This document shows positions 35,484 through 57,218 of a DNA stretch of 64,000 nt, one piece after another (position 1 is the stretch's first letter; the number at the start of each line of letters is the position of its first letter). The translations under genes were made by a program, and so were the position numbers. This DNA comes from Vermamoeba vermiformis. Its lineage: Eukaryota. Where the stretch lies: positions 1 to 64,000 of the forward strand of contig JBEWZL010000057.1 of assembly GCA_045837725.1 (NCBI GenBank), read 5' to 3'. The notes beneath the pieces are model-generated. The model did not search any database, had not been told where the DNA came from, and saw only the letters and a list, made by a program, of their open reading frames with translations.

Positions 35484-37109
35484 TCAATTCGCTTTGTTTT
35501 CTTTGTCGAGTTCCACGTGGCTCATCTTGTTCATGAACGAGGTGCCATGCACAGTGCCACCAACGACAGCGCTCGTGTTGCCAGTGCTGGTCTCGTGCTC
35601 GGGCTCGACTTTGAACAGCTGTCTGCGCGTGCTCGAGGACTTGGCGTGCTGCACAAGGGTCGCGAGTCCTTCAACTGCTTGCAAGTCCACCGTGTTCAGC
35701 GCGTCGTTGGTGACGTGGCCATGGACTGCAATACTGTCGTTGACACCTGTCACTTGAATCATCGGCAACACGCTCTCGTGCAGCGGTGCAGTTTTGAACT
35801 GACTCTTGACCAGTGTTCGTCCAGCCAGGTCTTTGGTAGCAATGAGCACTGGTCGTGCGGGCGTTGAATTCGTTGACCAAGATTGACCCGCACTGCTCTC
35901 GTGTCGTTTGCTGCGTTTGGGCTCGCCAGTGGCTGTTTTGTGCTTGGGAGTTCGATTCTTCAGATCGGAGAATTTCAGTGAATGCACGGTGATCGGTTTG
36001 TGATCTGCGCTGGGAGATTTGAGCGGAATAATTGTTGGTAGTGAATGGGAGGCTGGATCTTGTTTGAATGGACTAAGAATTTTTCGTCGTTTGAAGGGTG
36101 AGGTGTTGGAGGTGCTATTTACAAAGTGATGTGTTGTATGCGACTCATCTACTTGGTCTATTTTACGTTTTTTGAGATTATTGATCAGCTTCGTACACTG
36201 CATCCGTTGAAAAAAAAATTAGAAAAAAATTTAATGATTATTGTTTGTGATATTACCTCGTCTTTAACAATACTCTCGTCAGTTCCAATCTTTGACAATA
36301 TCATCTGATCGGCATTATTTCCATTTTTGGAAGTTAATTTGATTGGCGTTGAGTGCGGGGACTTCAATAGCAAATTATTTTCAACGCCACTGAAACTCGT
36401 GCTGACATTTAAATGTTAGCCTCGTCATTGCTTAATATGACTCTTATTACCTTTTTTCGTATTGTTTTGGATATCTTTCGAGAAATGCAGTGAGTTGTTT
36501 CTGCATCTCGTCGAACGGAACGGTTAGCGATGAAGATCGCTGTTTTTCATTGTTATTTACAGGTGCTTCTGTTAATATGATATTATGAGTATACTGCTGT
36601 AATATTTATAGTGCAGTTAAATTAATTACCTGAGGTCGGCAGCTCGAGGATCTGATCGAGCGATATTTTGCGGAGGTACTTGTTGAAAATAGTGCCAATA
36701 CGCGGCAATTCTGTCATAATAAATTATATTTAATTAATATATCACTATTATCCTTCAACCGTTGATATTTAATTGGTACAGAATTATCGCATCTTTCACC
36801 ATTAATTTAATAATTATGTAAATTCAAAAATAATGCTTACCTCGTTCAGCAGCGAATATTCGTTGTTTTTTAAATGATTGTACGCCCCAAAATTTTTTAG
36901 CTGGACCCTTTCGGCGAGATTGAGATTCTGTAAGAAAATTAGCTGCAGCCTAATAGGAGCAAGTCGAGCATATTATTTTATTATTGCATTATATTAATGG
37001 TGGTATTGTGATATTTCATTTAAATACAAGGTGGATCGTGTAATCCGTTGCCAATAGTCTTACCCGACGGACCAAAGTCAGTTCGTACTTCCTCAACAAC
37101 CACGCTCAT
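35484..37109 (-). CDS. Hypothetical basic, low-complexity, probably nuclear protein; multi-exon
   Basis: Candidate start MSVVVEEVRTDFGPS at 37109; several short exons with GT-AG introns; last exon has KKRK, SP/TP sites and a KEN motif. Confidence 0.55.
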
Positions 37110-37170
37110 CAATACAATATATCACTATAGTAATATAATACTATTTACACTATCAAGTCTTGTGCTTGTT

Positions 37171-37451
37171 CATAAAGGACAATTTGTTAATTGGATCATT
37201 TTCTTCAAATGAATCGAACACACAAGCTAGACCTCAAAGGCTTCGTTATAATACTTCTATAACAAATTTGAACTTTGATACGTGCTGTATATGTTTTTAG
37301 GCTAAAAAAATGCAACGATGTGCTAATCCGTTATAACTGCCAAGATCTGGCCGAGCGTCAGGTAAAAACGATTGGAATAATTGTAAAATATTACAAATAT
37401 TTAAATAATCATCTATGAAATAATAAATGAGAAATATTTCTAGAATCTGCC
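37171..37451 (+). repeat. Left copy of degenerate ~285-bp direct repeat
   Basis: Colinear blocks shared with 53273-53566: CATAAAGGACAATT, CAAATGAATCGAACACAC, CCTCAAAGGCTTCGTT, ACTTCTATAACAAATTT, TGCAACGATGTGCTAATCCGT, GCCAAGATCTGGCCGAG, AAAAACGATTGGAATAAT, TTTCTAGAATCTGCC. Confidence 0.9.
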
Positions 37452-37493
37452 CAATTAATAACAGGGGATGAGACTGCAATAAAGGCCAGTAAT

Positions 37494-39027
37494 TTATTCG
37501 TAGCACCTCTTGTACATACAAAGCAGTGCATTTTCAGCTTTGGATCGCAAAGCCCAACTGCGCAGTAATCTGAGGGATTCTGTTGGTGGAGCGACTGGCC
37601 TCAACCATTGCTGCACTTTATCAGCCGTTGCAAGGCTACTATTACTAGCAATTGGTTGAAATTGTTTGGTGAATAAATAGAGCAAGAAGTTGTCGATTAT
37701 ATTGATGTGCACGGTTGGAGCGCTAGATTCGAGTTCGATGAGCTTTGACCAATGCAGTTTTGGGGCTCGATGATGCCCAGCGTGGAAATTATCGTTGAAT
37801 GGCGCTACATAACCGTTCCAATTAGTCGTGCTGCTATCAACTGTGTTTGGATTGGTCGGATCTATCAACGAGTGCCACAGCCACGCACCTCTGCTGATAT
37901 AAAAGCCTGCTGGAGCGTACGTGAAAAATAATGGCACCAACAAGCTCGATTGGACTTTCCATAGGGCTAACAGCACGAGGACGAATACTACTTGCCCGAG
38001 AAACATCTCAGCAAGTGCGATCCGAACACGTGACTTGTGGATCTTGTGAATGAGATAGCGATACACTCCAATGCAAGTCGTGTAGTCTAACCACATGCCA
38101 AACGAATAAACTGAGAACTCGAGAATACTTGAGCGATCGTATTTGGCTGTTGATTGAAAGTCGGATGCGTTGTTGTTCTCTTTGTGATGGATCAGCAAGT
38201 GGTTGGTTTTGTACACGCAAGGAATGTATCCAAAAAGCACAGCGGTGACTTGCAGCACAAAAGAAGAAACTTTGTGCTTGAATGGTGCCAGATGCATGTT
38301 CCAATGAAAGAGCCATTCCATCGGTAAGCCGAACGTCTCTTGATAAATAATGTAGAGTGGTAATACAATAATTGCATTTCCAACTGCGCCGCTGCTGAGC
38401 CATATAAACAGCGCATTTTGAGTGACGAATAGTAGTAAAAGTCCAAAGAAGGGAGCGTCTTGCGGGTTATTGACGAAATAGGTCCACCAAGTAACGTCTA
38501 TGAATAATCATTATTATTAAAGTAAGCCTAATATGTTAAAAATTAAGGTACTTGCCACAGTTTTTAGGATAAAACTTGTTTCGCAACGCCTCCAATACCG
38601 ATCGGTAAGTTTTCGTGCTCCAAAATACAGCAATATAACTCCAAATGCTGCCAGGCCATAGTAATAAAATTGGAAATACCAAGCTAATCACCCATAATGT
38701 ACTTGTTGAAAGCTTACTCACGCTGAAGAATTCTTTACGGATCTGCTTTAAAGAATTCAAGTACAAACCACACACGAACTCTAAAGTTAAGCAAAATAAT
38801 AAATACAATACGGCTAGAGTAATATATACATAATTGAATGCGATCATGATTAGTTGTGTTATCGCCATTGCATTGAGTTGTCAAAAAAACCGCGATCCAA
38901 AGAATACTCCCACGTGAAGCGTTCACAAAGAATATCGCTGCGTAAATACGGACAAAGAATTGAACGCGTTCTCTAGGATTTGAGAAAAGGGACAAAAAAT
39001 TTTAAGTGTCAAAGAATTAAATGACAT
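37494..39027 (-). CDS. Membrane fatty-acid desaturase/hydroxylase-like protein with extra N-terminal TM segments
   Basis: Three His boxes: EWLFHWNMH, HLLIHH, FHAGHH; hydrophobic segments; apparent single-base frameshifts near 39000, 38860 and 38340-38400. Confidence 0.75.
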
Positions 39028-39066
39028 TGTGTTATTCTTTTGCATTGCCGTTTTTGGAGATAAAAT

Positions 39067-39072
39067 CACGTG
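39067..39072. promoter_or_regulatory. CACGTG (E-box/G-box) in the divergent promoter between the desaturase and peptide 1
   Basis: ATCACGTG; CACGTG begins 86 nt before ATG 39153, followed by TAAATA at 39092. Confidence 0.45.
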
Positions 39073-39152
39073 ACTGGACCAGATTCAAATTTAAATAGCC
39101 TGGTAGACGACAAACATTCGCTCACCTAAGATACGAAAACTAACTAACAACA

Positions 39153-39347
39153 ATGGACGTTCAACACCAAGTCGCTCTTCTCGCTCAATCTGCCGCCTGT
39201 TTTGGCTCTGGATGCTGCTGCTCGGGCAGTGGTTGCAATTGCTCGTGCTCAAAGTCCCGTTCAGTGCTGCCAGTCCTTGATACCGACACTGTTCTCCCAT
39301 TCGAAAGCGAGGAACTTACTGAAGAATCGCTCTCCAGCTTTATGTAG
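39153..39347 (+). CDS. Cys/Ser-rich small peptide 1 (64 aa), candidate lanthipeptide precursor
   Basis: MDVQHQVAL...GSGCCCSGSGCNCSCSKSRS...SEELTEESL; paralogous to 39615-39836; AATAAA at 39383. Confidence 0.75.
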   Translation: MDVQHQVALLAQSAACFGSGCCCSGSGCNCSCSKSRSVLPVLDTDTVLPFESEELTEESLSSFM

Positions 39348-39528
39348 GACTATTATAGGCAACTAGGCCTAACTAGTTTTTCAATAAATATATTCAAACG
39401 TAATTTCTGTCATAATACTTGTCGCTCGCACAATTTTTATTTTTTAAACCAGATCTAATTGATGTAAAGAATAAGGTGAGATATAAAATCGAAATTACCT
39501 GCTGAGAATAAACCGTAAGAATAGCGAT

Positions 39529-39534
39529 CACGTG
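39529..39534. promoter_or_regulatory. CACGTG upstream of peptide 2
   Basis: ATCACGTG; CACGTG begins 86 nt before ATG 39615 (same spacing as peptide 1); TAAATA at 39551. Confidence 0.45.
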
Positions 39535-39614
39535 GCTTTGTCAAACACCATAAATACTGAGGTTGTCATTCATTATGTACAAGCTATCAATACACACACA
39601 CATCAAATACTGCA

Positions 39615-39836
39615 ATGGACGTTCAAATTCAACTCGCCCTCACTCCTCAAACCCTCACTCGTACTTTGGGAACTGGATGTGGCTGTTCCGCTAGCGTGGG
39701 TGGAAGCTGTAATTGCTCTTGCTCTAAAGGCCGCTCGCTTTTGCTTGCAAACGGATGTGGCTCCGATGCAGGTATTTACGTCAGTGAAGAACTCAGTGCG
39801 GACTTGATTGCCGAAACTTCCCTATTCTGGGAGTGA
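39615..39836 (+). CDS. Cys/Ser/Thr-rich small peptide 2 (73 aa), candidate lanthipeptide precursor
   Basis: MDVQIQLAL...GTGCGCSASVGGSCNCSCSKGRS...SEELSADLI; AATAAA at 39874. Confidence 0.75.
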   Translation: MDVQIQLALTPQTLTRTLGTGCGCSASVGGSCNCSCSKGRSLLLANGCGSDAGIYVSEELSADLIAETSLFWE

Positions 39837-40426
39837 AACAAATTAAACCCTGTTGTATTCTTTTTCTTTTCTAAATAAAGAATTGGCATTATTTAAAAAA
39901 CCGAGCTTCTCTACGATGATTATTTACTCATATAATTGATCGAACGCACAACGTATGGAAAATCAGTGGGTCGGATCCTTCTGGTACAAACCAGCTCCTT
40001 CATTCTTTACTCGAGAAAAGCGCTACATTCGCAGTTCAAATACTGATAAGAAAGTCGAAGTGCTCAACGATAATCACTCTTACAACCAATCAAGCAAAAT
40101 TCATCGGATCAAGATCTCGGATTTGAACGTCGCGGAGTCCTCTAAAGATGGCTAATACTCATAAGAAACGATAAAGAATTGTATACATTAAAATGTAGTC
40201 AAAAGGAATAAAGACTCGCCCGAGTCTACTTCAGATCCAAAGAATACAAAGTGCATTCTCGCACGTTCTTCGCGTTCACGAATAACAAAATTTCAAAGAA
40301 TGTTTTGTCCGCAGTTACGAAATTTCAGGTTTAACGCGTAATTCTCAGCTCGATGTACGTATTCTTAAAAGTTGTGCGTTTTTTTTAGAGTCTCAGTTCA
40401 TTTTAAATTGTTTTATATTGCACCAC

Positions 40427-43400
40427 ATGACCGAATATCATTTTGTAGTGCATAACCAACCGCAACAACCCGAGCTATTGGCGGTTTTAGAAAGTGGTAT
40501 GAAAACAAAACTAATTTGTTTGAACTAATTCTCTCTAATACGATCTCTTACCTTAAAGTCGAAGCCAATGTTGTTGAAATTGGTGATATTATTTACGCCA
40601 TAGCACCAACGAGCATTGTTGCTCGGATTCAGGATCAGCACGGGGAGATCTTCAATTCTTCAACCTTCCGTTCCCGATGGCCTTCTACTCTGCGTTTAAA
40701 TAATCAATATGCGTCAGTTACGCATGAAAGGCGTGCAAAAGAAACGACTCGAGAATTGATTGAAAGATTTTTTCCCAAATCTGTAAGTTCGATCATTTTG
40801 CCTTAACGCGAGACTAACATTCCTTATAGACTGAGGTTAACGTCGATAACGTTGTCGTCAGTAGCATCACCAAGAACCAAATGACTTGGGGCACGCAGAA
40901 ATTTGAGACTTTGGAGTTTGTCGCAAACTTCGAATCCGCGCTGATTAACATTTTGGTCGAAGATAGCGGCAATAGAAATCACGATACTTTGCACCTATTC
41001 TCTAGATTCGTATCCCCTGATACCCTTTCGTCGATGGCCAGTCGCCTTTCTGGAGCTGGATCAACTGCTGAAATTCCTTTCACCCAAAAACCAGAACTAG
41101 CAAGCGCTACCTTCATCGACCAGTTCGTCAACATTGTTGCACTCAATGGCTCCAAAGTAGCTCTTCATGAAGTGGACAACAACCGTGAGATCTCGTACGC
41201 AGCACTCAACAAGCTCGCGAACAAAATCGCCCACGCCATCATAGAGAAGAGACCAAGAAGCAAGTTGCCTGTTGGAGTATTCATGAATAGATCAGTCAAC
41301 TGTGTTGCTGCAATGATTGGAGTACTCAAGGCTGGATGTGCATACTTACCACTCGATCCATCGTATCCAAAACAAAGACTTGACTCCATGATTGAAACAT
41401 CGAAATGCGAGTTGATTCTTGTTGATGATTCAACGATCACGAGTGCAAGTGATTTGATCCAAGACAAAGCATCCGTCAATGTTGATGAATTATCGACAAT
41501 GTTCAGTGAAGACAATCCAAACGTGCAAGTGTCTTCAGACGATCTAATGTACGTCATCTTCACTTCTGGAAGCACGGGAACATCCAAAGGGAGTGATGGC
41601 TACGCACGCGTCAATGATGAACAGATTGAATTGGATGTTGGACACGTTCAAGGCAGAAGAAAATGAAGTGTTCCTGTTCAAGACCAAACTGTCATTCATC
41701 GATCACATCACGGAGCTGTTAACTGGCTTACTATGTGGAGGTCGAGTTGTAGTGGCATCAGATGACTTGGTGGCCAATGTGGAACGACTGCTCGATGTAC
41801 TTGCCGAACAAGCTGTTACTCGTTTAGTCGTGGTCCCTTCGTACTTGAAAGCTTTGTGCCAATCTTTGCAAATAAGACCTCGCAACTTAGCCCTACGTTA
41901 TTGCTTCACGAGTGGCCAGCGGTTGGATTCATCCACAGCACGAGCAGCGTTGCGAATGCTACCTAGCACGTTGCTTGTGAATCTTTATGGTTCAAGTGAA
42001 GTGGCCGGCGACGTCACCTATGCGATAATTAAACATCCAGCTGACATAACAATTGGTGTTCCGATAAGCAATGCACGTGTTATCCTCGAACCTACCAGTG
42101 ATGGTGAGCCAAATGAAGGCGAGATTCTCGTTGGTGGTGTGCCAATCGTTCGAGACATCGTTGGAGCAAGCAGCGCTAACAAATTCTGCACTATTGACAA
42201 CGTGCGCTACTACAAGACCGGTGACATTGGTAGACGGCTTGAAGATGGGAGAATTGAGTTCGTTGGAAGAATTGACGACCAAGTCAAAATAAGAGGTTTT
42301 CGTGTCGAGCTTGGAGAAGTCGAAGAGTGCACAAGACAAGTGAAGCAAGTTGAAGATTGTGCTGCCGTCTTCGATGAAGTGAAACAGCAGTTGGTGCTCT
42401 TTGTCAAGCCAGAGAACTGTGATATTGAACAGGTGAAGAGTCACATCAAGATTAGTCTTCCGGAGCAATGTAATCCAAGTTTGATTTTGGCAATCGACAA
42501 CATTCCCTTGACACCAAATGGTAAAACAGACCGCTTGAAGTTGAAGCAACGAGTCAACGAAACTCTCAGTGGATTGCAGATCGTCAACAAGCCAACAACT
42601 GCTTTGGAGCAGAGCATTCACGACATTTGGAAGCTAGTGCTTGAACGAGACGTGGATCTTCAAACTGACTTCTTTGCGCTCGGCGGACATTCATTGCATT
42701 CCATTCAAATTCTGTCGCTCATGAAAGCAAATCTCAATTTAGATATCAAAAGCCACGACTTCTTTGGCAACCCTTCAATTAGCCAATTAGTGCAATTCGT
42801 CGAAAATAATCAAGATCAACTCACCAGTCCGATGGCTAATGTGCCAATCCACAACGAGAGCGATGAATATGTTCCGAGCACTCCATTCCAACACCAAATG
42901 TTCTTCGTACAAATGCTAAAGCCTACTTCAAGCGCGCTGAATGTTTGCAGTGCCTTGCATCTCAGGGGACAACTGGACATCGTATTAAACACGGGTCAGG
43001 ATCTCCCTAGTTCAAGTGGTGAATAAAGGGTCTCATGCGACTCTTCGTTCATCAATTTCCAACTCGCCGTGCATCAAACGAATGCCAAAGATCTTGTGGA
43101 CTGCTTGAAACAAGAAGTAAGTCGAGCATTCAACCTCGTCACTGGTCCCTTGTACAACATCGTATTGTTTGAGTGTGGACCTGAAGACCACTGTCTCATG
43201 GTGAATTGCCATCACTCGATCGTTGACGCTTGGTCGATGGAGCTGATAGAGCAGGAGATCGCCTCTCTTTACAACGGAAAAGAGTTGCTACCACTGGACG
43301 AAGAGTTCTCTAACTATGCCCATGCTGAACGAAGTCGTGTTGTTAGTGAAGAGCACATGGAATATTGGCTGCAAGCTATCGAAAAGAACTACGTACGTCG

Positions 43401-46400
43401 TGTGCACGATGAAATCAAATCCACAAGACGGATTCAGCAATACTTCGACTTCGATAAGGTACTTGCACCTATTAATAATAACATCAGTTAATTAATGAGA
43501 ACTTTTTAAACCAGGGTCTTAGCGATTTAGTGCGGAATTACGCTAGAAATCAGCAGTGCACTCCGTCTTGTGTGCTTCTGACTGCCTTTCAAAAACTGCT
43601 CTACGAAAATAACTCACGTGTTGGTCTCTTGGCATATCCTGTCACCAATCGAAATTCTTTGGCGTTGTCTTCAGTGGTTGGCCCAATCTTCAATACAATG
43701 CTGCACCAGTTAAAACAAGTAGACTACACACGCCCGTTTTCCCAGCTGGTTGCGGAGAACTTCAAGCTTTGGAAAGAAGAACTCCGCTACAACACTTTGC
43801 CGCTTGCCACAATTTTGTCGAAATTCCGCGGCAATCAGGGTGACGCACGTTCGCTAGTTGAAGTAATGTTCACGTTTTGGAACGCGAAACAATGCAGCAA
43901 TCTCTTCAATGGGCTTAGCAACAAATACGTGGAGTTTTTCACCGATGATTCACAATTTCCTATCGAAGTGAATTTCACAGAGAGAGACGGAGAGCTGCGT
44001 TGCATGGTTGACTACAATTTCTCCTATCTGGCCATTGACGCTGCACAGTTCAAAGCTCGCTTGACCGAGATTCTAACGCAGGCATTCAATAATAACGAAT
44101 CTCCAGTCGTCAGCAGATCCGTTATTAACAGCCCACCCAAAGTAATCTACGGTGACTCTGTGGCAGTAATGAGGAGATGCCTCCACCAAGCTTTTGAAGA
44201 TCAAGCTGCCGTACACGTAGAAGACATTGCCATTTTTTGTTCGCTGACAAAAATCTCGTACGCGGATCTCAACAAGCTCGCAAACAGAATTGCCCACGCC
44301 ATCATAGAGAAGAGGCCAAGAAGCAAGTCGCCTGTTGGAGTGTTCATGAATAGATCAGTCAACTGCGTTGCTGCAATGATTGGCGTACTCAAGGCTGGAT
44401 GTGCATACTTACCACTCGATCCATCGTATCCAAAACAAAGACTTGACTCCATGATTGCAACGTCAAAATGCGAGTTGATTCTTGTTGATGATTCAACGAT
44501 CACGAGTGCAAGTGATTTGATCCAAGACAAAGCATCCGTCAATGTTGACGAATTATCGACAATGTTCAGTGAAGACAATCCAAACGTGCAAGTGTCTTCA
44601 GACGATCTGATGTACGTCATCTTCACTTCTGGGAGCACGGGAACGCCAAAGGGAGTGATGATTCCTCACTCGAATGTTCTTAATGTCAGTTCGGTACTTC
44701 AACGACAAGCTCCAGATCTGTGCCAAAGACAAGGTGCTCGCACATACTTCATTCAACTTCGACATTTCAGTGCTTGAAATCTGGTGCGCGCTGACAACAG
44801 GAGCGTCAATTGAGCTAATGGAGAAGACGCTTGAGCACGCTGCCTCGTTAGGAGATGAATTGATCACGAAGGGCATTACGGTGGCCCAAGCTACTCCAAG
44901 TCTCTGGAAATTGTCGTTTGCAAGCCCCTGGAAGGCTCCACATACGCGCATTATCGTCGGTGGAGAAGCTCTGACCATTGACGTCGCCCAACAACTGGTC
45001 AAGCGCGCTGGGCGGGTCTTCAACGCCTATGGCCCCACCGAAACAACTATATGGTCAACTTGCAACGAACTGAGTCCAACGCAGGTCCTATCAACATGCT
45101 GCATTGGCAAGCCTATCTGGAATACGCAAGTCACTGTACTTACTAGACTCCACGGACGGGGCCGGCGAAATAGTCATTGCTGGTGACGGAATATTTGGAG
45201 GATACATCAATCAACCTGAAAGAACGAGTGAGAAGACTCTCGTATTAAACAATGCTCGTTTTTACCGAACTGGCGACCGCGGAAGATTGCTGAACGATGG
45301 AAGTATCGAATATATCGGAAGAATTGACGACCAAGTCAAAATAAGAGGTTTTCGTGTCGAGCTTGGAGAAGTCGAAGAGTGCGCAAGACAAGTGAAGCAA
45401 GTTGAAGATTGTGCTGCTGTCTTCGATGAACTGAAACAGCAGTTGGTGCTCTTTGTCAAGCCAGAGAACTGTGATATTGAACAGGTGAAGAGTCACATCA
45501 AGATTAGCCTACCAATGCAATGCGTTCCGAACTTAGTCTTGACGACTACCACAATTCCGTTGACGTTGAACGGCAAAACAAATCGTCTGGAGCTAAAGAA
45601 GCGAGCAAGAGAGGTCCTGGAGCAGCGACAAATCGTCAACAAGCCAATAACTGCCGTAGAACAAAGCATTCACGACATTTGGAAGCACGTCTTCAATAGC
45701 AGCGCAGATATTGACGTCCATACCGACTTCTTTTCGCTTGGCGGCCATTCTCTTCATACAGTTCAGATCGTATCAACAATCGGAGCCAATTTGAACGTGC
45801 AAATTACGCTGCAAGACTTCTTCGGCTGTCCTACAATTAGCCAACTTGCTAAATTAGTAGAAAACGAATTAGCAGCGCAGAAGACGCTGAAATCGTTCGT
45901 CGAGGTGCTCACCGATGACTTGCAATTCACTGTCACGCCTCCAACCACTGTAGACCACAACCAATACCAGGAGGTCGTTCTCTTGACTGGTGCTAGTGGG
46001 TTTGTTGGCATGAAAGTCCTCGAAGCATTGCTCCAAAGACGGAAGGATTGTACCGTCTACTGTTTGTCTCGTCATGTGGCCAAGCTTGTTGCCGAAGTCG
46101 ATTCTCGTCTGGCCGTTTATTCATCAAGAATACGCTGCATCGAAGGAAAGCCTGAATTGCCTTCGCTTGGGCTTGCCAAAGAAAGCTACGCTGATCTGCG
46201 AAACAAAATTACCAAAATCGTTCACTGTGGAGCCGAAGTCAACTTCTTAAAGGATTACCTGCACCTAGCTTCAAACGTAGAGTCGACTAAACACCTGATA
46301 GAATTCGCAGCTGACAAAGGCATACCGCTGATTTACATAAGTACCAACAATCCGTTCTATTTGGATCCAGAAGAGAACATTGCGACATTGAGTAGAGAAC

Positions 46401-46883
46401 TTTCCGAATACTATGGGCTACATTCAAACCAAATTAGTATCGGAATACATAGTACAGAAAAATCTACGACATTACACGATCATCAGGCTTCCATTGGTGT
46501 CTTCAAGATCTCTCACGGACGACTGCAATCAAAACGAACTGTTGATGGCGGTCCTGAAGTCATCCTCTTCGTTGGGAATCTATCCAGACATACAAGCTGA
46601 GATTGACGTGTTGCCGGTAGACATCGTTTGCCGAATATTGGCGGACATCATCGAAAATCCCGAGAAACACGCGAGGCTTTTGTCGATCTCGAACAACGAG
46701 CCACTGACTCTCAAAGATATTGTCGAGCGCGTTGGTCTGCAGCTTAAGTCGTCTTCGTTGGAAAACTGGAAACGAAAGAGCGGTACTGATTTCGCTAAAT
46801 TTCTGGCCATTCTGCACGAAAATGCGTTCCCGCCCAAAGTACGGCACGGCAGGTTTAGATTTGTAGAGGACACGTGGTCTTAG
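40427..46883 (+). CDS. Bimodular NRPS: (unknown N-terminal domain)-A-T-C-A-T-R (terminal thioester reductase)
   Basis: Two A domains (AYLPLDP, YVIFTSGSTG.PKG, Y.TGD, GRIDDQVKIRGFRVELGE, LT.NGK); two T domains (FF.LGGHSL); C domain HHSIVD; reductase LTGASGFVG and GYIQTK. Introns ~40497-40558, 40783-40829, 43459-43514; apparent frameshifts ~41585, 42990, 44690, 45140, 46410. Confidence 0.9.
41190..41598 (+). repeat. Near-identical intragenic duplicate of 44253-44660 (A-domain N-terminal part)
   Basis: DNA almost identical, including synonymous sites, from ATCTCGTACGC to GGAGTGATG. Confidence 0.9.
42265..42455 (+). repeat. Near-identical intragenic duplicate of 45317-45507 (A8 motif region)
   Basis: GGAAGAATTGACGACCAAGTC...CACATCAAGATTAG occurs twice with only a few substitutions. 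Confidence 0.9.
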
Positions 46884-47490
46884 TACTACACCAATCAATC
46901 TTGCTTGAATAAAATTGTGTTTTGTGTGGTAGATCTGAAAAAATATTGTTAGTTAGGAGCACAACGCTTCGAGAACAACTACTAAGCTATTTGAGGAATA
47001 TTTATGTACGAATTGACGGAGGCAGCTGCGCAGGCCTTGTACGTACTTTAGATTTGACAATGTCTCATCAGAATTCTAAATATTAAAATACCGCCAAAAA
47101 ATTATTCAATATAAAATGCAACTTCCTTTATATTGGTTTTTTGCATATTTTCCAAGAGGCACGGTGCTCTATTTTTTTTTTGGTTAAATCTTACCTTTTT
47201 TCCAACAGATCTTGCATTGTCGACAGTTGCTCGTGATATTTGTTACGAAGCGTTGTGTATTGAAACGCGAGCAATAAAATGTAAGTTACATTATACAGAA
47301 TCAAATCTAGAGCTTCCGAATCTCTACTTGGAAAATAAAATTAATAGATTTACCTCAGGTGAAGGTCTAAGCAGAGTCACAACGTGGTGCGTAGCTTTAT
47401 GACCGAGCAAAGTAAGTCAAAATTAAAATTCCAATCGTTTTGTTTTATCTATTCCGGCCCTACAAACAAAACAAAGTCACGTCACCATCT

Positions 47491-48234
47491 CTAAAGCGAC
47501 GAATGTTGCTTGTGTTGAACGTGGCTATCGGGAGAGGTGTTGAGATTTCCAGAATAGTACACCACGTCCACCTTGCTTCCCTTCGACAACGTGACGTTCT
47601 TCGCGCGCACCTCCTTCGCTCTAGTGTTCTCTAGCACGACGTCTCCTTCTGAGATCACACGACTGGCTACTTCAAAGCCCGGAGTACCTGCTTTCGCCTC
47701 GATCTTGATGGAGTGCTGGCCGTACAAGTCTCGCACCTCGCTCTTGGATTCAGAGTCACACTTGAACGAGATGTTTTGACCTGAAAGCACGTTAGTGATC
47801 ATGCGACCAACACCAGTGAAGTTCGTGGCTTCGATATTCTGCGAGACATTAAGAAATCCGATGTGATTGAGTTTCTCAACTTTCACGCTGCCACCGACGG
47901 CGAGCATTCCAGTGACAGAGACGCTGTTGCAATTGACGTTGCCTTCGACAGTAACAGGACCAATCACATCGATAGAATTTGTCAGATCGCCTTTGCAATA
48001 CATTGGGCCGAAGTGAGTGGAGCCAGAGTTGCTTGAGAAAGTTGGTCCGTAGGTCTCAGAACTGCCCGGAATGTACTTGCGAGCGAAGGGAGGAACGTAG
48101 GCTTGCCAGTCTTCGTTGCCGGATTCGGGGCTTGAGGGAGGAGAGCTCGAAGATGACGCATGATTGTGCCAATTGTGAGGGCACTGGCCGTGGCTATGGT
48201 TTGGAATGAACTTTGTCCAGAAGGGTTCAGTCAT
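47491..48234 (-). CDS. Bactofilin-like/polymer-forming beta-helix protein (Bacillus YhbE/YhbF-like C-terminus), intronless
   Basis: V.G.V.V.G-type repeats; C-terminal EGDVVLENTRAKEVRAKNVTLSKGSKVDVVYY. Confidence 0.6.
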   Translation of the reverse strand: MTEPFWTKFIPNHSHGQCPHNWHNHASSSSSPPSSPESGNEDWQAYVPPFARKYIPGSSETYGPTFSSNSGSTHFGPMYCKGDLTNSIDVIGPVTVEGNVNCNSVSVTGMLAVGGSVKVEKLNHIGFLNVSQNIEATNFTGVGRMITNVLSGQNISFKCDSESKSEVRDLYGQHSIKIEAKAGTPGFEVASRVISEGDVVLENTRAKEVRAKNVTLSKGSKVDVVYYSGNLNTSPDSHVQHKQHSSL

Positions 48235-48543
48235 GACTTGCTTGCGTGGTTTTGAGTGCGATAAGATTTAAAATTAATCGATGTGAAGTTTTTTTTGTTT
48301 TTGACGTATTCTTATTCTTAGTAACACAAGCACGTGATTTCTCGCGCACGACGGACATAAGAATACAATCTGCCTATTCTTTAGCCTTTCGCTGAAAATT
48401 TTCACTTGCAGTTCAATTCTTCGTTCCTAACTTTCGAAAGATATTCTTTACCTCAATGCACTATTCTTATGCAATTTACTCTATTCTAATCGTTTATTTA
48501 CTTGAATACCAATACAGTAGTCTCGTCTACTCATTACAAAGAA

Positions 48544-49239
48544 TTAGATTTGTTGTTTGCTCTCCACATCCGAGTGAAATTCGGTCAAATTAGTGGAGTA
48601 CGTGAGTGATTCAACGTGAGAGTGAAATAAGGTAACATTTTCTCCGCGAACACTCTTCGCAAACACATTATGCAGCACTATGTTCTTTCCTACGATGCTG
48701 TTCACTTTAACTTTGGGTGTGTTCTCCTTCGTTTTGATGAGTACTGAGTCTGCGTTGATTTCGCTAATCGACGAGGACGAGTCAATTTTCAATTCAATTG
48801 CCTTCGCTGAGATTGATTTGGCTTGCACATTGCCTACGACAGAGCAGGTTTCGGTTTTAATGTCATTCGCAGTCAAGGCACCAGTGACAGTCAGCTTTGC
48901 TACTACAGAAGATCCAAGGATAGAGAGCGGTCCAGTGACGGTTACCTCTTCAGCTTTTAAGTTGCCGCGGATAGTAGCGCTTCCGTAGACTTTTAACTCG
49001 TTGGATGTGCAGCCATTTTTTACGACCAAGGATCCATAGTGCGTTAGAGATTTCTCAAGAGAGTCAACGACCTTTTCGCCGTAAGTTGCATCAGATTCCC
49101 AGCCATCGAGGTTGTGCCATTGTTGATCCCAGTCTCGTGCCTCGTCATCCAGATCCACAAACTTTGGCACATACTTTCGCCAGTCAAAGCACAGGGTCAT
49201 GCCAATAAGTATAAATATGAACACGATATTCGAGCGCAT
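48544..49239 (-). CDS. Second bactofilin-like beta-helix paralogue, with predicted signal peptide, intronless
   Basis: Hydrophobic start MRSNIVFIFILIGMTLC; LKVYGSATIRGNL, VTVTGPL, LTVTGAL repeats; IVGKNIVLHNVFAKSVRGENVTL...VESLTY. Confidence 0.6.
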   Translation of the reverse strand: MRSNIVFIFILIGMTLCFDWRKYVPKFVDLDDEARDWDQQWHNLDGWESDATYGEKVVDSLEKSLTHYGSLVVKNGCTSNELKVYGSATIRGNLKAEEVTVTGPLSILGSSVVAKLTVTGALTANDIKTETCSVVGNVQAKSISAKAIELKIDSSSSISEINADSVLIKTKENTPKVKVNSIVGKNIVLHNVFAKSVRGENVTLFHSHVESLTYSTNLTEFHSDVESKQQI

Positions 49240-49363
49240 TTGGGGTCTTCAGTTGTGTTGTTGTTAATCGTTTTAAGAATTGATTTGAAAGAATTGAGCG
49301 AAAAGCTATTAAAATTTGTTTTTCGGAATAAGCCATTTCTATTCTTTATTAAGAAAGGACAAC

Positions 49364-52300
49364 ATGGATTTGAAGCAATTCAACGCACTATTTAAAGATA
49401 GGTTACCTTGGGGAAGATCTTTGCTTTACGCCCCTCATTTGTGCAAGAGCTTGGAGGCTATTTTACCCGTCCTCGAGCAAATAAGCAAGATAGATCCTTT
49501 AAAAGTGCTATCGGAACTCGTGAAAGCATGGCTTCAAGAATTGGATTCGTTGATCTTACCAACAATCGTTCACGAAATTAAAATCGCGGATAAAACTGGA
49601 GCTCTTCGCGGTTCTACTTCCGAAGAAAAGTATAAAAGGTAATTAAAATATAAGTAATCTTAAATTTCTAACAAATTACTTTATTCCCGTAGCTTTTTCA
49701 GAGATGCGAATAACAAACTTGCGGCCACTTTCGCTCAACTTCCCAACAAATACCCGATGTTAATGGAATATATTAAGCTTTATGTTTCATCAACCGTCTC
49801 GAATTTGAAGACAGCATTGGAGCGCTTTGTAAAAGACTCCGAAGAATTGCAATCTTTGGTATGTAACGCTGCGAAAATGATCCACTACAAGCCTAATGAA
49901 CAAAATAGGGATCAGTGGTATCGATTCTTCCAACTGATTCTGATAGACATGGAAACGGGCAACAAGTTCTCATTTTCGAGTTCGACAACAGCACGAAACT
50001 TGTGTACAAGCCCTTTGGAGGTACGTTCATGATTGAACTTTGCGGTTTTATGAATTCTCGCCAACAATATTCGCTCAGGGGACAGTGCGCGTGTGTTTAC
50101 GAACTATTGCAAAGCAATGAACTATCCTAAGATTCCTCGCATTGTTGTGCCGAGCAATCAGCTGCTGCCTCAAAAGGTAAGTTAGAACACGATCATTCGA
50201 TCATTAACTAAGAATAATTGCAGTACTATTGGATGGAGTACTTGACCTATGCTCCGTGCCAATCAGAGGTTGAGGTGCGACAGTACTTTCACAACGCTGG
50301 CAAGCTCCTGTGCATTGCAGAGTCGCTCGTTATGTCTGACGGACACAGCGATAACTTGATTGCTAGCGGCAGTGTGCCAGTAGTTGTTGATACGGAGACT
50401 ATATTTAGACCCCAAGTGTCGCGGTTTGAAAATGAACTTGACACTTTTGAGAGTAAGATATTAATTGCAATGGAACGGCAGTATCTAAGCGTTATTTTAA
50501 CAGAGAGATTGAGGATGACACTCTTAGTCCAAGACCCACCAGTTGTGGGTAAGCAGTTCGATGAGTTGCATGCTGCGTTCCAACAGCACGAAGAAGAAAA
50601 GCCAATTAGCGTGTTGTCCTACCATGCAAGTCACGATTTCACAGCTGACATCACACTAGAGACCGAGATGAGCGAGATCGCAACAAACAAAGCTGTACCA
50701 ACTTTGGCGGGAAAAGTCGTGTTCTTGCACGATAATAGTCGATGCATTTATGGAAGGTACGTCACTTTATTTGCACCCTCTTATATTAAACTAATGATGC
50801 CAAACAAAGGATTTATCGAGGCAAAGCAGTTGCTATTAGCCAATAAGGAGGTTATTGCAGCTTTGCTTGAGAACATTCAAACACGAGTAATTCTGCGACC
50901 AACCGCGTTGTACCTGAATTATCTTAGTGCTCTGAAGCAGCCTTGCCACCTTGGTTCTAGGGAAGATGCCGAGCTGTTCTTGAGGTACTGGCGCGACTCG
51001 AAGTCTTTTTAGTTGCTAAATACTATCCGCAGAACTTCGCTCAAACAGCACAACATTGAAGGCGCCAAAAGTTTTGCGAACTACGATGCTCTACTCGATT
51101 CAGAAGTAACTCAGTTATTAAGGCTTGATGTCCCCGCATTCTACGCTTTTGCCGGTGACCTTTCCGTGTGCACTAATACAGAAACGATAGCAAAAGACTT
51201 CTTCTTAGCCCCAACTAGCCTTGATTTTGCAAAGGCATTGCTTGACACCCCATTAAACGACTCGGATCTCAAAGCTTTGCGCGATATCGCGTCAACAAAG
51301 GCTAAAATGACGTTTGAAAGTGACAGTAAGTTGATTTATCCTCGTTAATGATTACTAACGATTAATAAGGTTTCGCAAAATTTGCGGTTGCTTTAGCGTC
51401 TAAGGCGAAGCGTCTTGACGATACAACTACATTCAGGGGTGAGTCTGGAAAGCTTATTGTCTTTGCAGCGCTTGCAAACGAACAAAAATTAATTGGGTAT
51501 GTTTGTAAAAACGAAATTAATAGTTGTGTAACCGTTCGTTTAGTGACGCAGCCAAAATCTTTCACAAAGAAGCTATGTCTCTTATCGATTCCTTGCTCAG
51601 CCAGCTTCAGAATTCTGCCATCCAACCTGATGGAGCCGCTCTTGGTACTTGTTCTGTGTTGTACGCATTGAGCTTGACGGCTTCTACGCTCAAGTGTACC
51701 AACTGATAAGATCGTGCAAGCTGCACTCCGCGTGGAGGAGACTGTCGACGAGTTAGATTTATTGGGTGGCGTAGCAGGAGCGATTTTGTGCCTATTAGCT
51801 ACTGAACATCTCGTTCAGGATACTCCTGAAGGTAATGACTAACACCCGAAATACACGATATATTTACTACCTCATTTCCCTAGGCGCTTTGTTGCTGAGC
51901 AAAGCTGAGAGACTGGCGGATGCAATGTTGAATCAATACTCTAGGTGGAAGAAACTCACGGGAGCGTCACACGGTTATTCTGGATTGATTCTGACGCTGC
52001 ATCGTTTGTACATGAGAACAAGCCGCGAAAAGTACTTAAACTTCTTGATTGAGCTGGTGCATATTGAAGACAAGTTTTACTCCCAAGAGTAAGGACAACG
52101 CGTAGTCTAATAGTACGGCATTAACGCTAGTCTATAGGCACAGAAACTGGTTGGATATGCGCGAAGGTATGGACAACTACGATTGGTACACTTGGTGCAA
52201 CGGGGCACCGGGAATAGCTACAGTTCGAAACTCGATCTACTCTGTGCTGCCAGACACGATGAAAAGCGATTGGTCAGCGACAGCGATGCAAATCTACGAT

Positions 52301-52664
52301 GATATTCTGGCAAGGTTCGAACAAACGTTGCTGATCAATCAATCTTTGTGTTGTGGCTCAGCTGGGTTGATAGAGGCAGTAAGTTACAAATATCAATAGC
52401 GACGTATCATCAGAACTAACGTCGCTCTCTTAGCTGTTGTCATACAAATCGATAGTTAACAAAGAGCGCGTAGAAGAAATTGACGAAAAAGTATCCGGGA
52501 TGACCCGAAGATTGTGCGAAGTTGTTTTGACGAAAGGCACCAAAGGAATTACTGACGATGGAATGTTCCAAGGAACTCTGGGCTTGGCATACATTTTACT
52601 TCGTGCGCAGGGCTACCCGACTTGTATCGTTAACTGGGAGACCCCAACGAGTCAAATTATATAA
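49364..52664 (+). CDS. lanM: Class II lanthipeptide synthetase (LanM: kinase-like dehydratase + LanC-like cyclase), ~11-12 spliceosomal introns
   Basis: Dehydratase: LRGSTSEEKYKSF, DRHGNGQQV, KLVYKP, WMEY, DGHSDNLIA, PVVVDTET, RVILRPTALY, LDVPAFY. Cyclase: LDLLGGVAG, GASHGYSG, NWLDMR, WCNGAPG, SLCCGSAG, GMFQGTLGLAYILLR. GT-AG introns e.g. 49639-49692, 49859-49908, 50021-50078, 50177-50223, 50985-51032, 52090-52137, 52379-52433. Confidence 0.9.
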
Positions 52665-52793
52665 ATATCGCAATTTCACGGACGGCTCTCGTTGCAACAA
52701 GTACGGGAGCAGAAAGTGTAATGAATTTTCATTTGCAGACAATTTCCCAAACAAAGGACTAAAGTTAAAGGAACTCATCCTTTCGGTCCAGCC

Positions 52794-53191
52794 ATGCAAC
52801 AGGAACCTACAGCAGACACAATTGCTTTGCAGGCTTTACAAGCAGAGCTTGAAGAAGCCGTACAACGGTCAGAGCAAGAGAGTACAAGACTTTACAAAGC
52901 AGCCATAGAAAAGAGCGGAAATCTGAATGAGATGATCGATGATTGTTTGCGCTTTTGCCAGAAAGTTACAGACATTGAACAAAAGGTAATTATCGCGTAT
53001 TTGTTAATTTTTTTGTTATGAGGTAAAAATATTTTAAATTAAATTAATAATGCAACTGAATGTAAATTTAGATAGCAGAATTAACACCAAACCGAAAATT
53101 GATAAAATTGAAGAGTTTGGTTGACGCTAACTGGCCCGGAATGAAAGTTCACAAGCACCCTCCTAACGGGAGTCGGCTGCCGACTCCGTAG
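52794..53191 (+). CDS. Small coiled-coil hypothetical protein (~100 aa)
   Basis: Exon 52794-52985 with heptad pattern; intron 52986-53071; second exon IAELTPNRKLIKLKSLVDANWPG... ending at TAG 53191. Confidence 0.5.
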
Positions 53192-53272
53192 TTTGCCTGT
53201 TTAAGCCGTTGACTTAGCTTAATTAATGTACGTACCACACTTAATCGAAATTAAAATGCTACAATGCTCACT

Positions 53273-53566
53273 CATAAAGGACAATTGTGCATTCGTCCAT
53301 TTCCGCTTTTCTCAAATGAATCGAACACACGAGAAGGCCTCAAAGGCTTCGTTCGTTGTAAAACTTCTATAACAAATTTCGAACCTTCATACATGCATAT
53401 TAGGCTGCAACGATGTGCTAATCCGTATTACCTAGCCAAGATCTGGCCGAGTGAGGTAAAAACGATTGGAATAATATTAAAATAATTTTAAAATATTACA
53501 AATATTACAAATAATCATCTACGAACTCAAGGGGATAATAATTGAAAAATGTTTCTAGAATCTGCC
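53273..53566 (+). repeat. Right copy of degenerate ~285-bp direct repeat
   Basis: Colinear, same-orientation homologue of 37171-37451. Confidence 0.9.
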
Positions 53567-53772
53567 GGATTAAAGAGAGGATCTCTCAAACCTAACGGAT
53601 ATCACGTTAAAGCTTTCTTTTCTTTCAACGATTATGTATATATTACTTTATTGTCGCAGGACGCAAAAAGTATTGTCACCAAAAATTGACAGCAAATTTA
53701 TTAACTTTATGGACCCGTGAGTAAATTTTTTGTTTTTGAAAGCTAATTATTATAAGCCTGCAATAAACAAGC

Positions 53773-56700
53773 ATGCGACTGCTTGGTATTACTTTAATAA
53801 TCATAGCGGCGTCTTTAGTTCGAACTGGTACGTATAACGGAGATCTCGGCCAACCGCTGTCAAATCCGGATTGCTCATGTTTTAAATTTAATCCAGGTGT
53901 TATAAGACATGTTTCACCTAACGGCGTTGATATTAACGATTGTACCGCTGCTTGTCGGTCCTTAACCTACGCAGTTACTCAATCTGCACCTGGTGACACT
54001 ATCTTCCTCGCGAACGGAACGTACAGTGGTTCATCAAACAGAGATTTACTCCTGCAAAATTACCAGATAAATATAATTGGAGAGTCAAAAGCGGGAGTAA
54101 TCATCGATCTGCAAGATCAAGGTAAAAATAACTGATTCTTTTGTGAGTCATGTGTTTGATTCGTTTAAATATAATTGTCATGAATAACAGTACCAATATC
54201 ATGATAGCTGCAATTTAATAGGACTAGTTCAAAACAAGCTGATTATGCAGTTAAAATGATTAGAAAATCTGATTTTTTTTTGTAGGACGAGCGTTTATTC
54301 TCGAAGACAGCAACATTAAGATCGCGTCAATTACGTTCATGAATGGAAATGCTCCGAACTCCTCGCCTCAAAATTATCGCGGCGGTGCTCTCTTGGCCCT
54401 CAATAGCTCCTCGCCGTCATACTTGGAACTCGAAGATGTCACTTTCAACGCGTGTCACGCCTCGAGTCCTGACGGCACTGGCGCAGGTGGAGGTGTGGCT
54501 ACGATCGTAAGTCCTATGAGCACGTGACGGCGAGTACTAACCAGCCAATCACAGCGAGCCACTGTTACAATGCGCCGCGTCGAGTTTGTGGATTGTTATG
54601 CAGGTGTCGCGGGAGGGTTCTACGCTGATAGTGCAACGGCCAACATCACCGACACGCACTTCACGAACTGTTCGAGTGTTTCATTGAACGGTGGTGCAGG
54701 TACAGTATTGGGCCTCATTTTATTCCTTCTCAATACACATTCTAACCAATCACGTGCTTGTAGTGGTGGTGGAGGGTGAGAGCCAGCTGTCGTTAGACCA
54801 ATGCTCGTTTGTGGACTGCAAGAGCGCTAAATTCGGTGGTGCCATTTACGAGTGTACGCAAGTGACTGTAACGAACTTATCATAATGATGATAAGAATAA
54901 TAATGATAAGAAGTAATACTAATCAGTCGCACAGCTGGCACGGCAAACTATTCAGTCACGCGCTCGGTCTTTGAACGCAATCGCGCTGTGTTTGGCGGTG
55001 CAGTATATCACTCTGGCAGTACCAGCACTGAAAGCACGTACCAGCAATGCGACTTTATCGGCAATGTGGCGACTGAAGGTGGTGGCGCGGTGGCTGCAAC
55101 AGCGAATTCAAAGCCCACGTACGACTACTGCAACTTTTACAACAACTCTGCACCGACAGGCGGGGCCATTAATGCTCTCGCTACGAATGGCGTGACCATT
55201 ACACACTGCGCGTTCAAATACAATCAAGTTACAGTGCAAGGCAGCGCCATTAATTTTGAAGGTCCAGCGGTGGTCCTGGACAATCTCTTCAAGGAAAACT
55301 TTTCGAACAAAGGCACCTTGTCATTCTCCGTCTCTTTATCCATGGCCAGCACATTCGTTGGCAACGCTTTTACGGGCAATGTAGCTACACTAGGAGCTGC
55401 CTTGTATGTCGAGACCGATGGCAATGTAGTGTAAGTCAAGTATTGTATCTATTTAGTCTGCTCACTTTTACTCTTCCAGACCGTGGGCCTTCGTCAACAG
55501 CACATTTGACAGCAATGTGGCCACGTCCGGAGGAGCTGTCCTGATCTCGGGAGCTAAAGCTACTTTCGACGGCGCTACATTCCATGCTAATTCCGCTGAT
55601 GAGTAAGTGCTGCATGTGGGTGACATTAGACTGATCAAGGTTGACAGTGGAGGTGCTGTTAAACTAGAGAACGGTGCTGTAGTGTCATTCACTGCTGTGA
55701 CGTTTGACAGCAATGTGGCGCAGACTCTGGGCGGTGCCATCAATCAAGACACCAGCACATTGATTCTGAGCGACAGTGCGATGACATTCAACCGCGCTAA
55801 GAACGGAGGTGGCTTGGCTGTTGCAGGTCCGACATGTCCCTCGTTGACTAGCGTGACCATACAGTCCAACAGTGCTGTCGAGTGTTGTGGGGCCGTGTTC
55901 TTGAGGGACTTGACGTGCTCATTCGAAACATTTTGCACCAACTGCACACTGACAGCGAACACAGTGGAGACTTGCGGACTGATGTGCACTTGCGAGCAAG
56001 GTCCTGTCACGAGTACGTCTAACTCAATTTACTTTCAATCGATTGAGCTCATACTGTTCATATTGCCAGACACAGCCTGTCCTCCATCAGTGAACGGTCC
56101 TAGTGCCGAAGCGAATGGAGGGTCTTCGAGTGACGTACCAATCAGCACTGTAGTTCCTGCTGTCGTAGTCCCGGTTGTCGTGGTGGCTGTGGGAATATTT
56201 TTGCTCATTTTCTTTATTAAGAAAAAGAAATCAGCCCAAACTGTCACTACCTCCATTGACATGCAGAATTTGACTGGTGAAGACAGATTGCATGTGCCGT
56301 ACAAAGAACTCAAGTTCAACAAAGAGATTGGCTCGGGCAGCTTTGGCAAAGTGTTCATTGGAGGTAAGGCAGATCTGGCACCATTTTAAGTTTTCAGCGT
56401 CTAACGGTGCTGCAAATAGAGTGGCAAAAAACTGAAGTGGCGCTCAAACTGAACACTTCTGGCACCTCGCAAGAGTTCCTTAGCGAGGCCAAGTTGATGA
56501 TGTAAGGCATTGCCTCTCTGCATCTTTTGTTCTAACTGACTGATAGTGCGCTGCGTCCTCACCCGAACATTGTTCAATTCTTGGGCCTGTCAACTGACGG
56601 TCCTTATCCCGTGATGATCATTGAGTACTGCGACGAAGGCAGTCTCGACAATCTGTTGTTCGACACCGAGAGCAATATTCCTCTCGAGAGACAGCTGGCC

Positions 56701-57218
56701 ATGATCAGTGCTGTCGCTAAGGGCATGTACCACTTGCACAGCAACAATATTATTCACAGAGATTTGGCCGCTAGAAATATTCTCGTAAGTCCATTGATTA
56801 ATTGGTTTGACATCACACTCACGACTCTCAGATATCAAAAGGCACGCTTAAAATATCCGATTTTGGCATGTCACGCACACTGCAGAACATGGACACGGGC
56901 ACGACCAAGACGGACATTGGTCCCGTGCGATGGATGGCGCCTGAGTCCCTCAAGAACCGCTCCTACAGCAAGAGTTCTGACGTGTGGTCGTTCGGTATTT
57001 TAGTTTACGAAATTTCAGCGAGACAAGAGCCGCACATTGCTGAAGACTTACTCACCATTGCACCGAAGATCCGCGACGAGGGGTTGACTCCTCCGTTGCC
57101 TGCAGACACGGATCCGTTCTTGGCAGATCTGATGAAACGGTGCTGGAATTTCAATCCTGAGGCTCGTCCGTCCTTTGGAGACATTTGCGATTTGTTGCAG
57201 ACTCGTCTCCGAAATTAA
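53773..57218 (+). CDS. Receptor tyrosine-kinase-like protein with pectin-lyase/Pmp-like beta-helix ectodomain
   Basis: Signal peptide; GDTIFLANGTY; repeated FxxN...GGA(I/V); TM VVPAVVVPVVVVAVGIFLLIFFI followed by KKKK; IGSGSFGKV, VALK, HRDLAARN, DFG, GPVRWMAPE, SDVWSFG. Confidence 0.88.

Follow-up and report, generated by a model that had tools for sequence, protein, structure and literature searches.

A spliced LanM gene with candidate precursor peptide genes in a repeat-bounded island of the Vermamoeba vermiformis genome

The first 64,000 nucleotides of contig JBEWZL010000057.1 of Vermamoeba vermiformis (GenBank assembly GCA_045837725.1; positions 1 to 64,000 of the forward strand, hereafter the window) contain an island of genes lying between two copies of a direct repeat. 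Six gene kinds were counted between the repeats (Table 1), taking in a gene for a full LanM, the class II lanthipeptide synthetase, a pair of genes for Cys/Ser-rich peptides, a gene for a non-ribosomal peptide synthetase (NRPS), a pair of genes for beta-rich proteins and a gene of the fatty-acid-desaturase family. A preliminary description, made from the letters of the DNA without database searches, had proposed that the island is a horizontally acquired lanthipeptide cluster. The LanM is a nuclear gene of an intron-bearing microbial eukaryote, and RNA of at least one public run shows it to be expressed as spliced transcripts.

Table 1. Positions of the repeat copies and genes of the island, in window coordinates
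Feature	Position	Strand	Evidence
Left direct-repeat copy	37170..37458	.	blastn against right copy
Fatty-acid-desaturase-family membrane protein, two predicted exons	37494..38868	-	PF00487, E 5.5e-12
Peptide gene 1, 64 aa, core GSGCCCSGSGCNCSCSK (7 Cys, 12 Ser)	39153..39347	+	Open reading frame and translation
Peptide gene 2, 73 aa, core GCGCSASVGGSCNCSCSK (6 Cys, 10 Ser)	39615..39836	+	Open reading frame and translation
Two-module NRPS, A-T-C-A-T-R, three introns	40427..46883	+	Domain matches in Pfam and NCBIfam
Beta-rich protein 1, 247 aa, single exon	47491..48234	-	X9 RNA contig 47439-48254
Beta-rich protein 2, 231 aa, hydrophobic N-terminus	48544..49239	-	Paralogy; X9 RNA contig 48470-49260
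LanM, class II lanthipeptide synthetase, ~914 aa, 11 introns	49364..52664	+	PF13575, PF05147, TIGR03897; spliced RNA joints; models scored with a hidden Markov model
Right direct-repeat copy	53272..53573	.	blastn against left copy

A full LanM, as the preliminary description had claimed, is recovered as one gene model of ~914 residues in which a DUF4135 dehydratase is fused to a LanC-type cyclase. The model runs from an ATG at 49364 to a stop codon at 52662-52664; DUF4135 (PF13575) is matched at E 2.4e-35, LANC_like (PF05147) is matched on two exons, and TIGR03897 is matched at positions 205-435. The RNA evidence comes from X9, a public RNA-seq library that carries a different organism label and whose contigs are 95-99% identical to the window. 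Short GT..AG stretches are missing from the X9 contigs, six of them within LanM and one within the 5' end of the NRPS gene, so that six LanM introns are observed as spliced joints (49639-49692, 50985-51032, 51326-51369, 51497-51543, 52089-52137 and 52379-52433). The other five (49859-49908, 50021-50078, 50177-50223, 50757-50809 and 51832-51883) are predicted: intron paths were enumerated and their products scored against a hidden Markov model (HMM) built from five LanMs, and one of the five introns was taken from a fragment of another assembly. The predicted introns are of the same type as the spliced ones, GTA.GT at the donor, a CTAAC-like branch region and YAG at the acceptor, with lengths of 47-58 nt. 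The complete ATG-to-stop model scores 235 bits against the five-LanM HMM.

The motifs of both catalytic halves are kept in the model. Those of the dehydratase read DSDRHGNG, KLVYKP, SDGHSDNLIA, VVVDTET and RVILRPT, and those of the cyclase read GASHGYSG, WCNGAPG and LCCGSAG, so that the features by which a LanM is recognized (D.H, the YKP lysine, D.H..N, D.E and R..RPT, together with the zinc ligands and the SHG histidine) are all present; the dehydratase residues presumably have the roles assigned to their counterparts in CylM. Alignment of the central exon to LicM2 and CylM matches D.H..N, D.E and RPT, and the WC.GAPGI motif aligns with LicM2. The LCCGSAG motif implies an all-cysteine (Cys-Cys-Cys) zinc site, in which the third ligand is Cys instead of His, the CCG variant of the enzyme.

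Among 82 checked full-length matches (at least 800 aa), 37 have CCG and 26 have CHG at this site. In a FastTree phylogeny of 81 LanMs the window protein lies inside a clade of 52 rows with SH-like support of 99, which takes in every one of the 35 CCG rows and leaves out all 26 CHG rows; the branch that carries the window protein, the second-longest in the tree at 2.53 changes per column, is so long that the exact position of the protein is uncertain. When the 253-residue LanM exon was compared by HMMER with 1.84 billion representative proteins, 3219 of them matched at E <= 0.001, of which only two reach E <= 1e-30. These two are fragments of 83 and 90 aa, 99% and 95% identical to the window protein, from one 3317-nt record, and the next-best match follows at E 1.7e-14, with whole-exon alignments that are 27-30% identical. 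A word-indexed homolog search for LanM found only five distant LanMs, and no close relative was found in pattern scans of metagenome contigs with the LanM exon and a piece of the NRPS, or in a pattern scan of bacterial and archaeal species genomes (GTDB, one per species) with the LanM exon.

The 11 introns, the GC content of the island (0.40-0.47, the same as in the flanks) and the lack of a close bacterial relative in these scans together point to a gene that has long been resident in the eukaryotic lineage and is no contaminant. LanM is a bacterial family, and we infer a bacterial ancestry of the gene from its place in the CCG-type clade and from the known distribution of the family. In the preliminary description the cluster was called horizontally acquired and domesticated; the intron-bearing, transcribed eukaryotic context agrees with the second term, and an origin in bacteria would agree with the first. 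An assembly chimera, or bacterial contamination among eukaryotic genes, might be suspected from the presence of domain families typical of bacteria, but this explanation is extremely improbable and is already contradicted by the data, since LanM and NRPS have spliceosomal introns that are removed in RNA, the GC content does not set the island apart, the pattern scan found no close relative among the GTDB species genomes, and contigs of the DNA run X1 span 30 of the 30 bins of 36500-54500, both borders included, at similar depth.

The two peptide genes lie 9.5-10 kb upstream of LanM. The preliminary description had pointed to two paralogous Cys/Ser-rich peptide genes, and both open reading frames (ORFs) are confirmed, with 56% identity over the first 43 residues of their products. 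Each peptide has a short N-terminal part with the sequence MDVQ.Q.AL, a central Gly/Ser/Cys core and a long acidic C-terminal tail. The locus thus places a complete LanM 9.5 kb from Ser/Cys-rich peptide genes in a eukaryotic, intron-bearing and transcribed setting, as had been proposed.

The best-supported reading of these genes takes LanM for a class II enzyme that works, or did so until recently, with the adjacent peptides as its putative substrates. The pairing is suggested by three considerations: the numbers of Ser and Cys in the cores nearly match, the presence of two genes is common for CCG-type enzymes, and peptide 2 is transcribed in the same run, X9, that shows LanM to be spliced. 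The explanation that we favour is accordingly phrased as a complete, spliced LanM, received from bacteria long ago, that acts on the two neighbouring peptides; we hold it tentatively, as the foremost of several possibilities and somewhat short of probable. The bacterial gene would have entered the lineage long ago. Ser and Thr residues of the central Gly/Ser/Cys core of the 64- and 73-aa peptides would be dehydrated by LanM, through phosphorylation followed by elimination, and the core cysteines would then be added to the dehydro-residues to give small peptides densely bridged by thioethers. Recognition and leaving parts, which host proteases would cut off, may be provided by the MDVQ.Q.AL stretch at the N-terminus and the acidic tail at the C-terminus. 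Every step from enzyme to product in this scheme is one that we infer.

A number of observations weigh against this explanation. With regard to the peptides, the Cys/Ser core is central and not C-terminal, a search of Pfam and NCBIfam matched no precursor or leader family, and a homolog search with peptide 2 found none. With regard to the surrounding genes, the absence of LanT and LanP remarked on in the preliminary description holds for the island, in that no such domain occurs among the island ORFs scanned, and the island contains no protease, transporter or immunity gene. Furthermore, the composition of the cores and their CxC spacing recall fungal copper metallothioneins. The same facts can be read to mean that the genes are unrelated neighbours, in which case LanM would have other substrates or serve a LanCL-like protein repair, the peptides would bind metal, and the NRPS would make a separate dipeptide aldehyde. 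Besides the missing match to any known lanthipeptide leader or core family and the CxC spacing, the weakness of the Atlas look-alikes of peptide 2 speaks for this view (the best score is 0.79, to a Cys-rich RiPP precursor family, RiPP denoting a peptide that ribosomes make and that is then modified post-translationally, and is below the level that counts), as does the fact that A-T-C-A-T-R NRPSs work alone in bacteria, the AusA model being among the best matches here. However, the peptides match no metallothionein family of Pfam even at E up to 10 and have long N- and C-terminal extensions that are absent from small metallothioneins, the X9 coverage has the same extent as the island and ends where the island does, and CCG-type LanMs process many diverse Ser/Cys-rich substrates; we consider it unlikely that these genes are neighbours without a common pathway.

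The reading frames of LanM and of the NRPS are both interrupted in the window, and this is a further point against a working pathway in this particular copy. The NRPS itself corresponds to the A-T-C-A-T-R enzyme of the preliminary description, the domain order being borne out by Pfam and NCBIfam, although in the window it is spread over seven frames. Its introns are at 40497-40558 (a spliced joint in X9 RNA), 40783-40829 and 43459-43514, and the protein retains the core motifs GGHSL (twice), HHSIVDA, TGASGFVG and YIQTK. For three of its pieces, AusA of NCBIfam ranks among the best-matching models, with 208 bits against an equivalog cut-off of 2500. A stretch of ~190 residues before the first A domain (40427-41140), encoded partly by two small 5' exons, forms an N-terminal extension without an assigned family. 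The first halves of the two A domains (41190-41598 and 44253-44660) are 95% identical in DNA over 409 bp, as though gene conversion or duplication had recently taken place inside the gene; the middle, substrate-binding parts of the two domains are ~66% identical by alignment, and blastn gives 76.6% between 42240-42806 and 45291-45864.

Three-frame translations of the NRPS gene reveal six breaks and an in-frame TAA at 43024-43026. The first break, at ~41581, is inside the TSGSTG.PKG motif; two, at ~42990 and ~43060, fall early in the C domain with the TAA between them; and the others are at ~44690 after HSNVLN, at ~45144 in VTVL/DSTDG and at ~46390 before the YIQTK motif. One X1 DNA contig skips or replaces 42984-43038 (55 bases, with ends AT..GC that do not make an intron), which is the site of the C-domain breaks and the TAA. 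In LanM there are single-base breaks at ~50738-50740 and ~51697. An alternative to the break at ~51697 is a weak GTGTTG intron at 51656-51710, with which the model scores 232 bits as against 235. The break at ~50738 was found with the help of P0007, a fragment from another assembly that reads ...FLHDNTDAFMEG and then continues into the intron; when the intron at 50757-50809 is removed, P0007 gives G-7x-N-3x-F-2x-GF, the spacing of the LanM consensus G-7x-Y-3x-I-2x-GF. A second fragment of that assembly, P0006, is near-identical to LanM over ~50233-50481 and ends in ...AMERQ, where the window continues with YLSVIL, and P0007 begins, at a Met, 11 codons past this end. The early end of P0006 implies that the other record has a stop or a frame break where the window is open, and this too counts against an intact enzyme.

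One extra base in the window accounts for seven of the eight breaks. Contigs of X1 are without one base at 41581 (depth 172 of 226), 45144 and 50740, that is, at exactly three of the break sites. Of the 31 indels between X1 and the window 12 are listed, and in all 12 the letters are missing in X1 relative to the window; 8 of the 12 are intronic or intergenic. This direction suggests either insertion errors in the window assembly or an odd mutation spectrum. Among the differences between X1 and the window that are listed, beyond which there are 200 more, 20 fall in the NRPS, 9 synonymous and 11 non-synonymous, and the synonymous share hints at past constraint.

The breaks can therefore be read as consensus insertion errors in the window or as the onset of decay in LanM and the NRPS of the strain or haplotype from which the window comes, and no choice is made here between these two readings. 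Consensus errors fit the bias in indel direction but do not fit the intact state of the desaturase, peptide, beta-rich, DUF4246 and leucine-rich repeat (LRR) genes. Onset of decay fits the clustering of the breaks in LanM and the NRPS and the early end of P0006, but it does not fit the kept motifs and the 9 synonymous changes among the 20 NRPS differences listed. Carried further, decay would make the island the relic of a once-working cluster, with LanM and the NRPS now pseudogenes and the RNA residual or from a related strain. Such a relic would be in keeping with the eight frame breaks and the one stop that fall within ~8.7 kb of coding sequence of LanM and the NRPS, the more so as no breaks are seen in the desaturase, peptide and beta-rich genes and as, beyond the island, one ORF carries the DUF4246 match over its full length and the frames of three LRR genes are long and open; P0006 supplies an independent fragment that also stops early, and RNA reads bearing the same species label as the DNA are lacking over the island (see below). 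Nevertheless, three of the break sites are free of the extra base in other versions, all catalytic motifs are kept, synonymous changes are well represented among the NRPS differences listed, and the predominance of the extra base among the breaks, together with the fact that at every listed indel it is X1 that has the fewer bases, is more like consensus insertion errors than decay. We regard a relic as rather unlikely on this evidence, although it is the more serious of the rivals to an enzyme acting on its neighbours. If there are working LanM and NRPS genes, they would be the X1 versions that are without the extra base at the three sites.

The transcription data are likewise of mixed bearing. 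X9 covers 21 of the 30 bins of 36500-54500, and its depth is zero outside the repeats, in the bins 36500-37100 and 52727-54500. Inside the island the depth is 13.7 over peptide 2 (bin 39505-40105) and mostly 2.6-7.6 over LanM, falling to 0.08 and 0.35 where the large central exon lies, in the two bins of 49722-50923; it is 0.9-2.4 over the desaturase-family gene, 0-3 over the NRPS, and 27, 19 and 6.4 over the beta-rich genes. The depth is zero in the bin of peptide 1 and over 40707-43110 of the NRPS, which counts against the favoured explanation. In addition, coverage of 43000-52999 follows from selection, because the run was found with that stretch as query; this does not apply to the coverage of 37.1-40.7 kb or to the silence of the two flanks. 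Raw reads of the RNA runs X21 and X23, which carry the same species label as the DNA and hold ~13 million records each, number zero on 37.7-54.5 kb, again to the disadvantage of the favoured explanation. The same runs have only 7 and 8 reads on a neighbouring gene, which confirm its minus-strand intron, and 13 of these 15 reads are 95-99% alike to the window and not 99% or more. The material of X21 and X23 thus differs from that of the window, and reads of greater divergence could have escaped notice.

The desaturase-like gene of the preliminary description is confirmed by a PF00487 score of 46.4 bits, above the cut-off of 29.7, and the histidine-box-like sequences HLLIHH and HAGHH are visible in its translation; an X9 RNA contig lies over 38556-38855, and the intron at ~38498-38558, with its weak GTGGCA donor, is predicted only. 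The two genes that had been described as bactofilin-like are paralogs, with 35% identity at E 6e-20, and in this respect the description stands; the affinity to bactofilins is weak, in that the Pfam family Bactofilin (PF04519) matches the pair at E 0.018 and 1.4, with scores of 15.7 and 9.7 bits where the cut-off is 27.9. For beta-rich protein 1, which has the highest RNA depth in the island (33.9 over the X9 contig given in Table 1), an Atlas search scores 0.90 to clusters with some PF04519 members, and the AF2 model is all-beta at low confidence, with a predicted local distance difference test score (pLDDT) of 54. A Foldseek search of this model against the PDB found nothing at E <= 0.001, its weak top rows being beta-helix proteins and a bactofilin standing at rank 42, and a word-indexed homolog search with the protein found none. 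A small coiled-coil gene that had been placed at 52558-52908 is rejected here, as it overlaps the last exon and the 3' end of LanM in another frame and has no Pfam match.

The NRPS, the desaturase-family enzyme and the beta-rich pair are linked to the peptide chemistry only by their position and a shared expression domain. It is conceivable, though we think it more doubtful than not, that the island encodes the first eukaryotic lanthipeptide pathway in a fuller sense, in which an old CCG-type LanM, by now with 11 introns, would act on a new type of precursor, with a central core and an acidic follower, to give products with several thioether bridges, in a co-expressed, repeat-bounded island that has recruited an AusA-like NRPS, a desaturase-family enzyme and two novel beta-helix-like proteins.

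The direct repeat that the preliminary description saw bracketing the island is real and is present in two copies of low identity, 75% by blastn over 322 aligned columns with several indels, or a mean column identity of 80% in a separate comparison. Self-comparison of the 64-kb window yields no third copy. The depth of X1 contigs over the two copies is 155 and 167, which is not above the surroundings and therefore speaks against a high-copy mobile element. One X1 contig with a depth of 62.7 joins 53453 in the right repeat to 37359 in the left repeat, the shorter side of the joint being 50 letters. This joint could reflect a variant repeat copy of the second haplotype, a further copy at some other place, or an island in tandem or circular arrangement; since the X1 depth over the island is not raised, a tandem is unlikely.

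The flanks carry ordinary eukaryotic genes, as had been described, namely those for a P-type ATPase, a DUF4246 protein, LRR proteins, a receptor-like kinase and Es2. The P-type ATPase gene has a clean intron of 52 nt after ICSDK. To the right of the island, at 54910-57003, lies a receptor-kinase-like gene, which combines Chlam_PMP repeats and a weak dystroglycan-like stretch with a Tyr/Ser-Thr kinase domain. Near the start of the window, a segment of ~480 bp is present in four copies that are 83-96% identical (1654-2143, 4361-4873, 7175-7677 and 10121-10619), one of them inverted; at least three stand at the head of tandem genes that combine Peptidase_S74, the endosialidase chaperone, with leucine-rich repeats, the copy at 1654-2143 lying outside the domain scan. 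Scans of the window for tRNA genes and Rfam families gave no matches.

Comparison with known systems places the LanM closest to the bacterial CCG-type (ProcM-like) enzymes, with which it shares the DUF4135 and LanC architecture, the catalytic motifs, the all-Cys zinc site in LCCG and the clade; more than one candidate substrate gene is likewise present. It differs from them in its location in a eukaryotic nucleus, its 11 introns, its long branch and a best whole-exon identity of 27-30%. The candidate precursors also differ from those of bacterial CCG-type clusters in having a short N-terminal part, a central core and an acidic tail, and there is no LanT-type exporter or protease nearby. The NRPS has the same A-T-C-A-T-R order and terminal thioester reductase as the aureusimine synthetase AusA, but has three introns, an N-terminal extension, frame breaks and a score far below the equivalog cut-off. 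The beta-rich pair resembles bactofilins (PF04519) in its repeat pattern, although it remains below the Pfam cut-off and has no significant fold match. Lipolanthine clusters combine a class III-like synthetase with polyketide synthase and NRPS parts by which the peptide receives an acyl unit. The island is similar to those of the microvionin type in that a lanthipeptide enzyme is near fatty-acid- and NRPS-type genes, while no result obtained here supports a coupling of such a unit to the peptide.

The LanCL proteins of eukaryotes also have a LanC-type cyclase fold, whereas the window protein is a full LanM. In excerpts from PMC11251773, eukaryotic LanC proteins are not tied to lanthipeptides or dehydratases, and one algal LanC-like protein is described that has a Cys-Cys-Cys triad but no dehydratase. 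Full-text literature searches found no paper describing a eukaryotic LanM; subscription journals and supplements were outside these searches, and a prior report is possible. In excerpts from a paper on a diatom genome (PMC3491386) the only mention of lantibiotics is as part of the name that a COG transporter category bears, and excerpts from PMC7268733 contain nothing on eukaryotic enzymes.

A eukaryotic LanM with candidate precursors is thus plausible and unusual, and the case is weakened by the frame breaks, by a product that is deduced from the genes, and by links to the other genes that consist of position and expression domain. Lanthipeptides have been regarded as a bacterial invention and eukaryotic LanC-like proteins have been described as cyclase-only, so the finding of a spliced, full-length LanM beside Ser/Cys-rich peptide genes opens a direct test of whether eukaryotes make lanthionine-bridged RiPPs. 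If the favoured explanation is true, the peptides would be precursors of a novel kind, serving a permissive CCG-type enzyme, and the island would be a rare multi-gene example of bacterial-type secondary metabolism turned fully eukaryotic.

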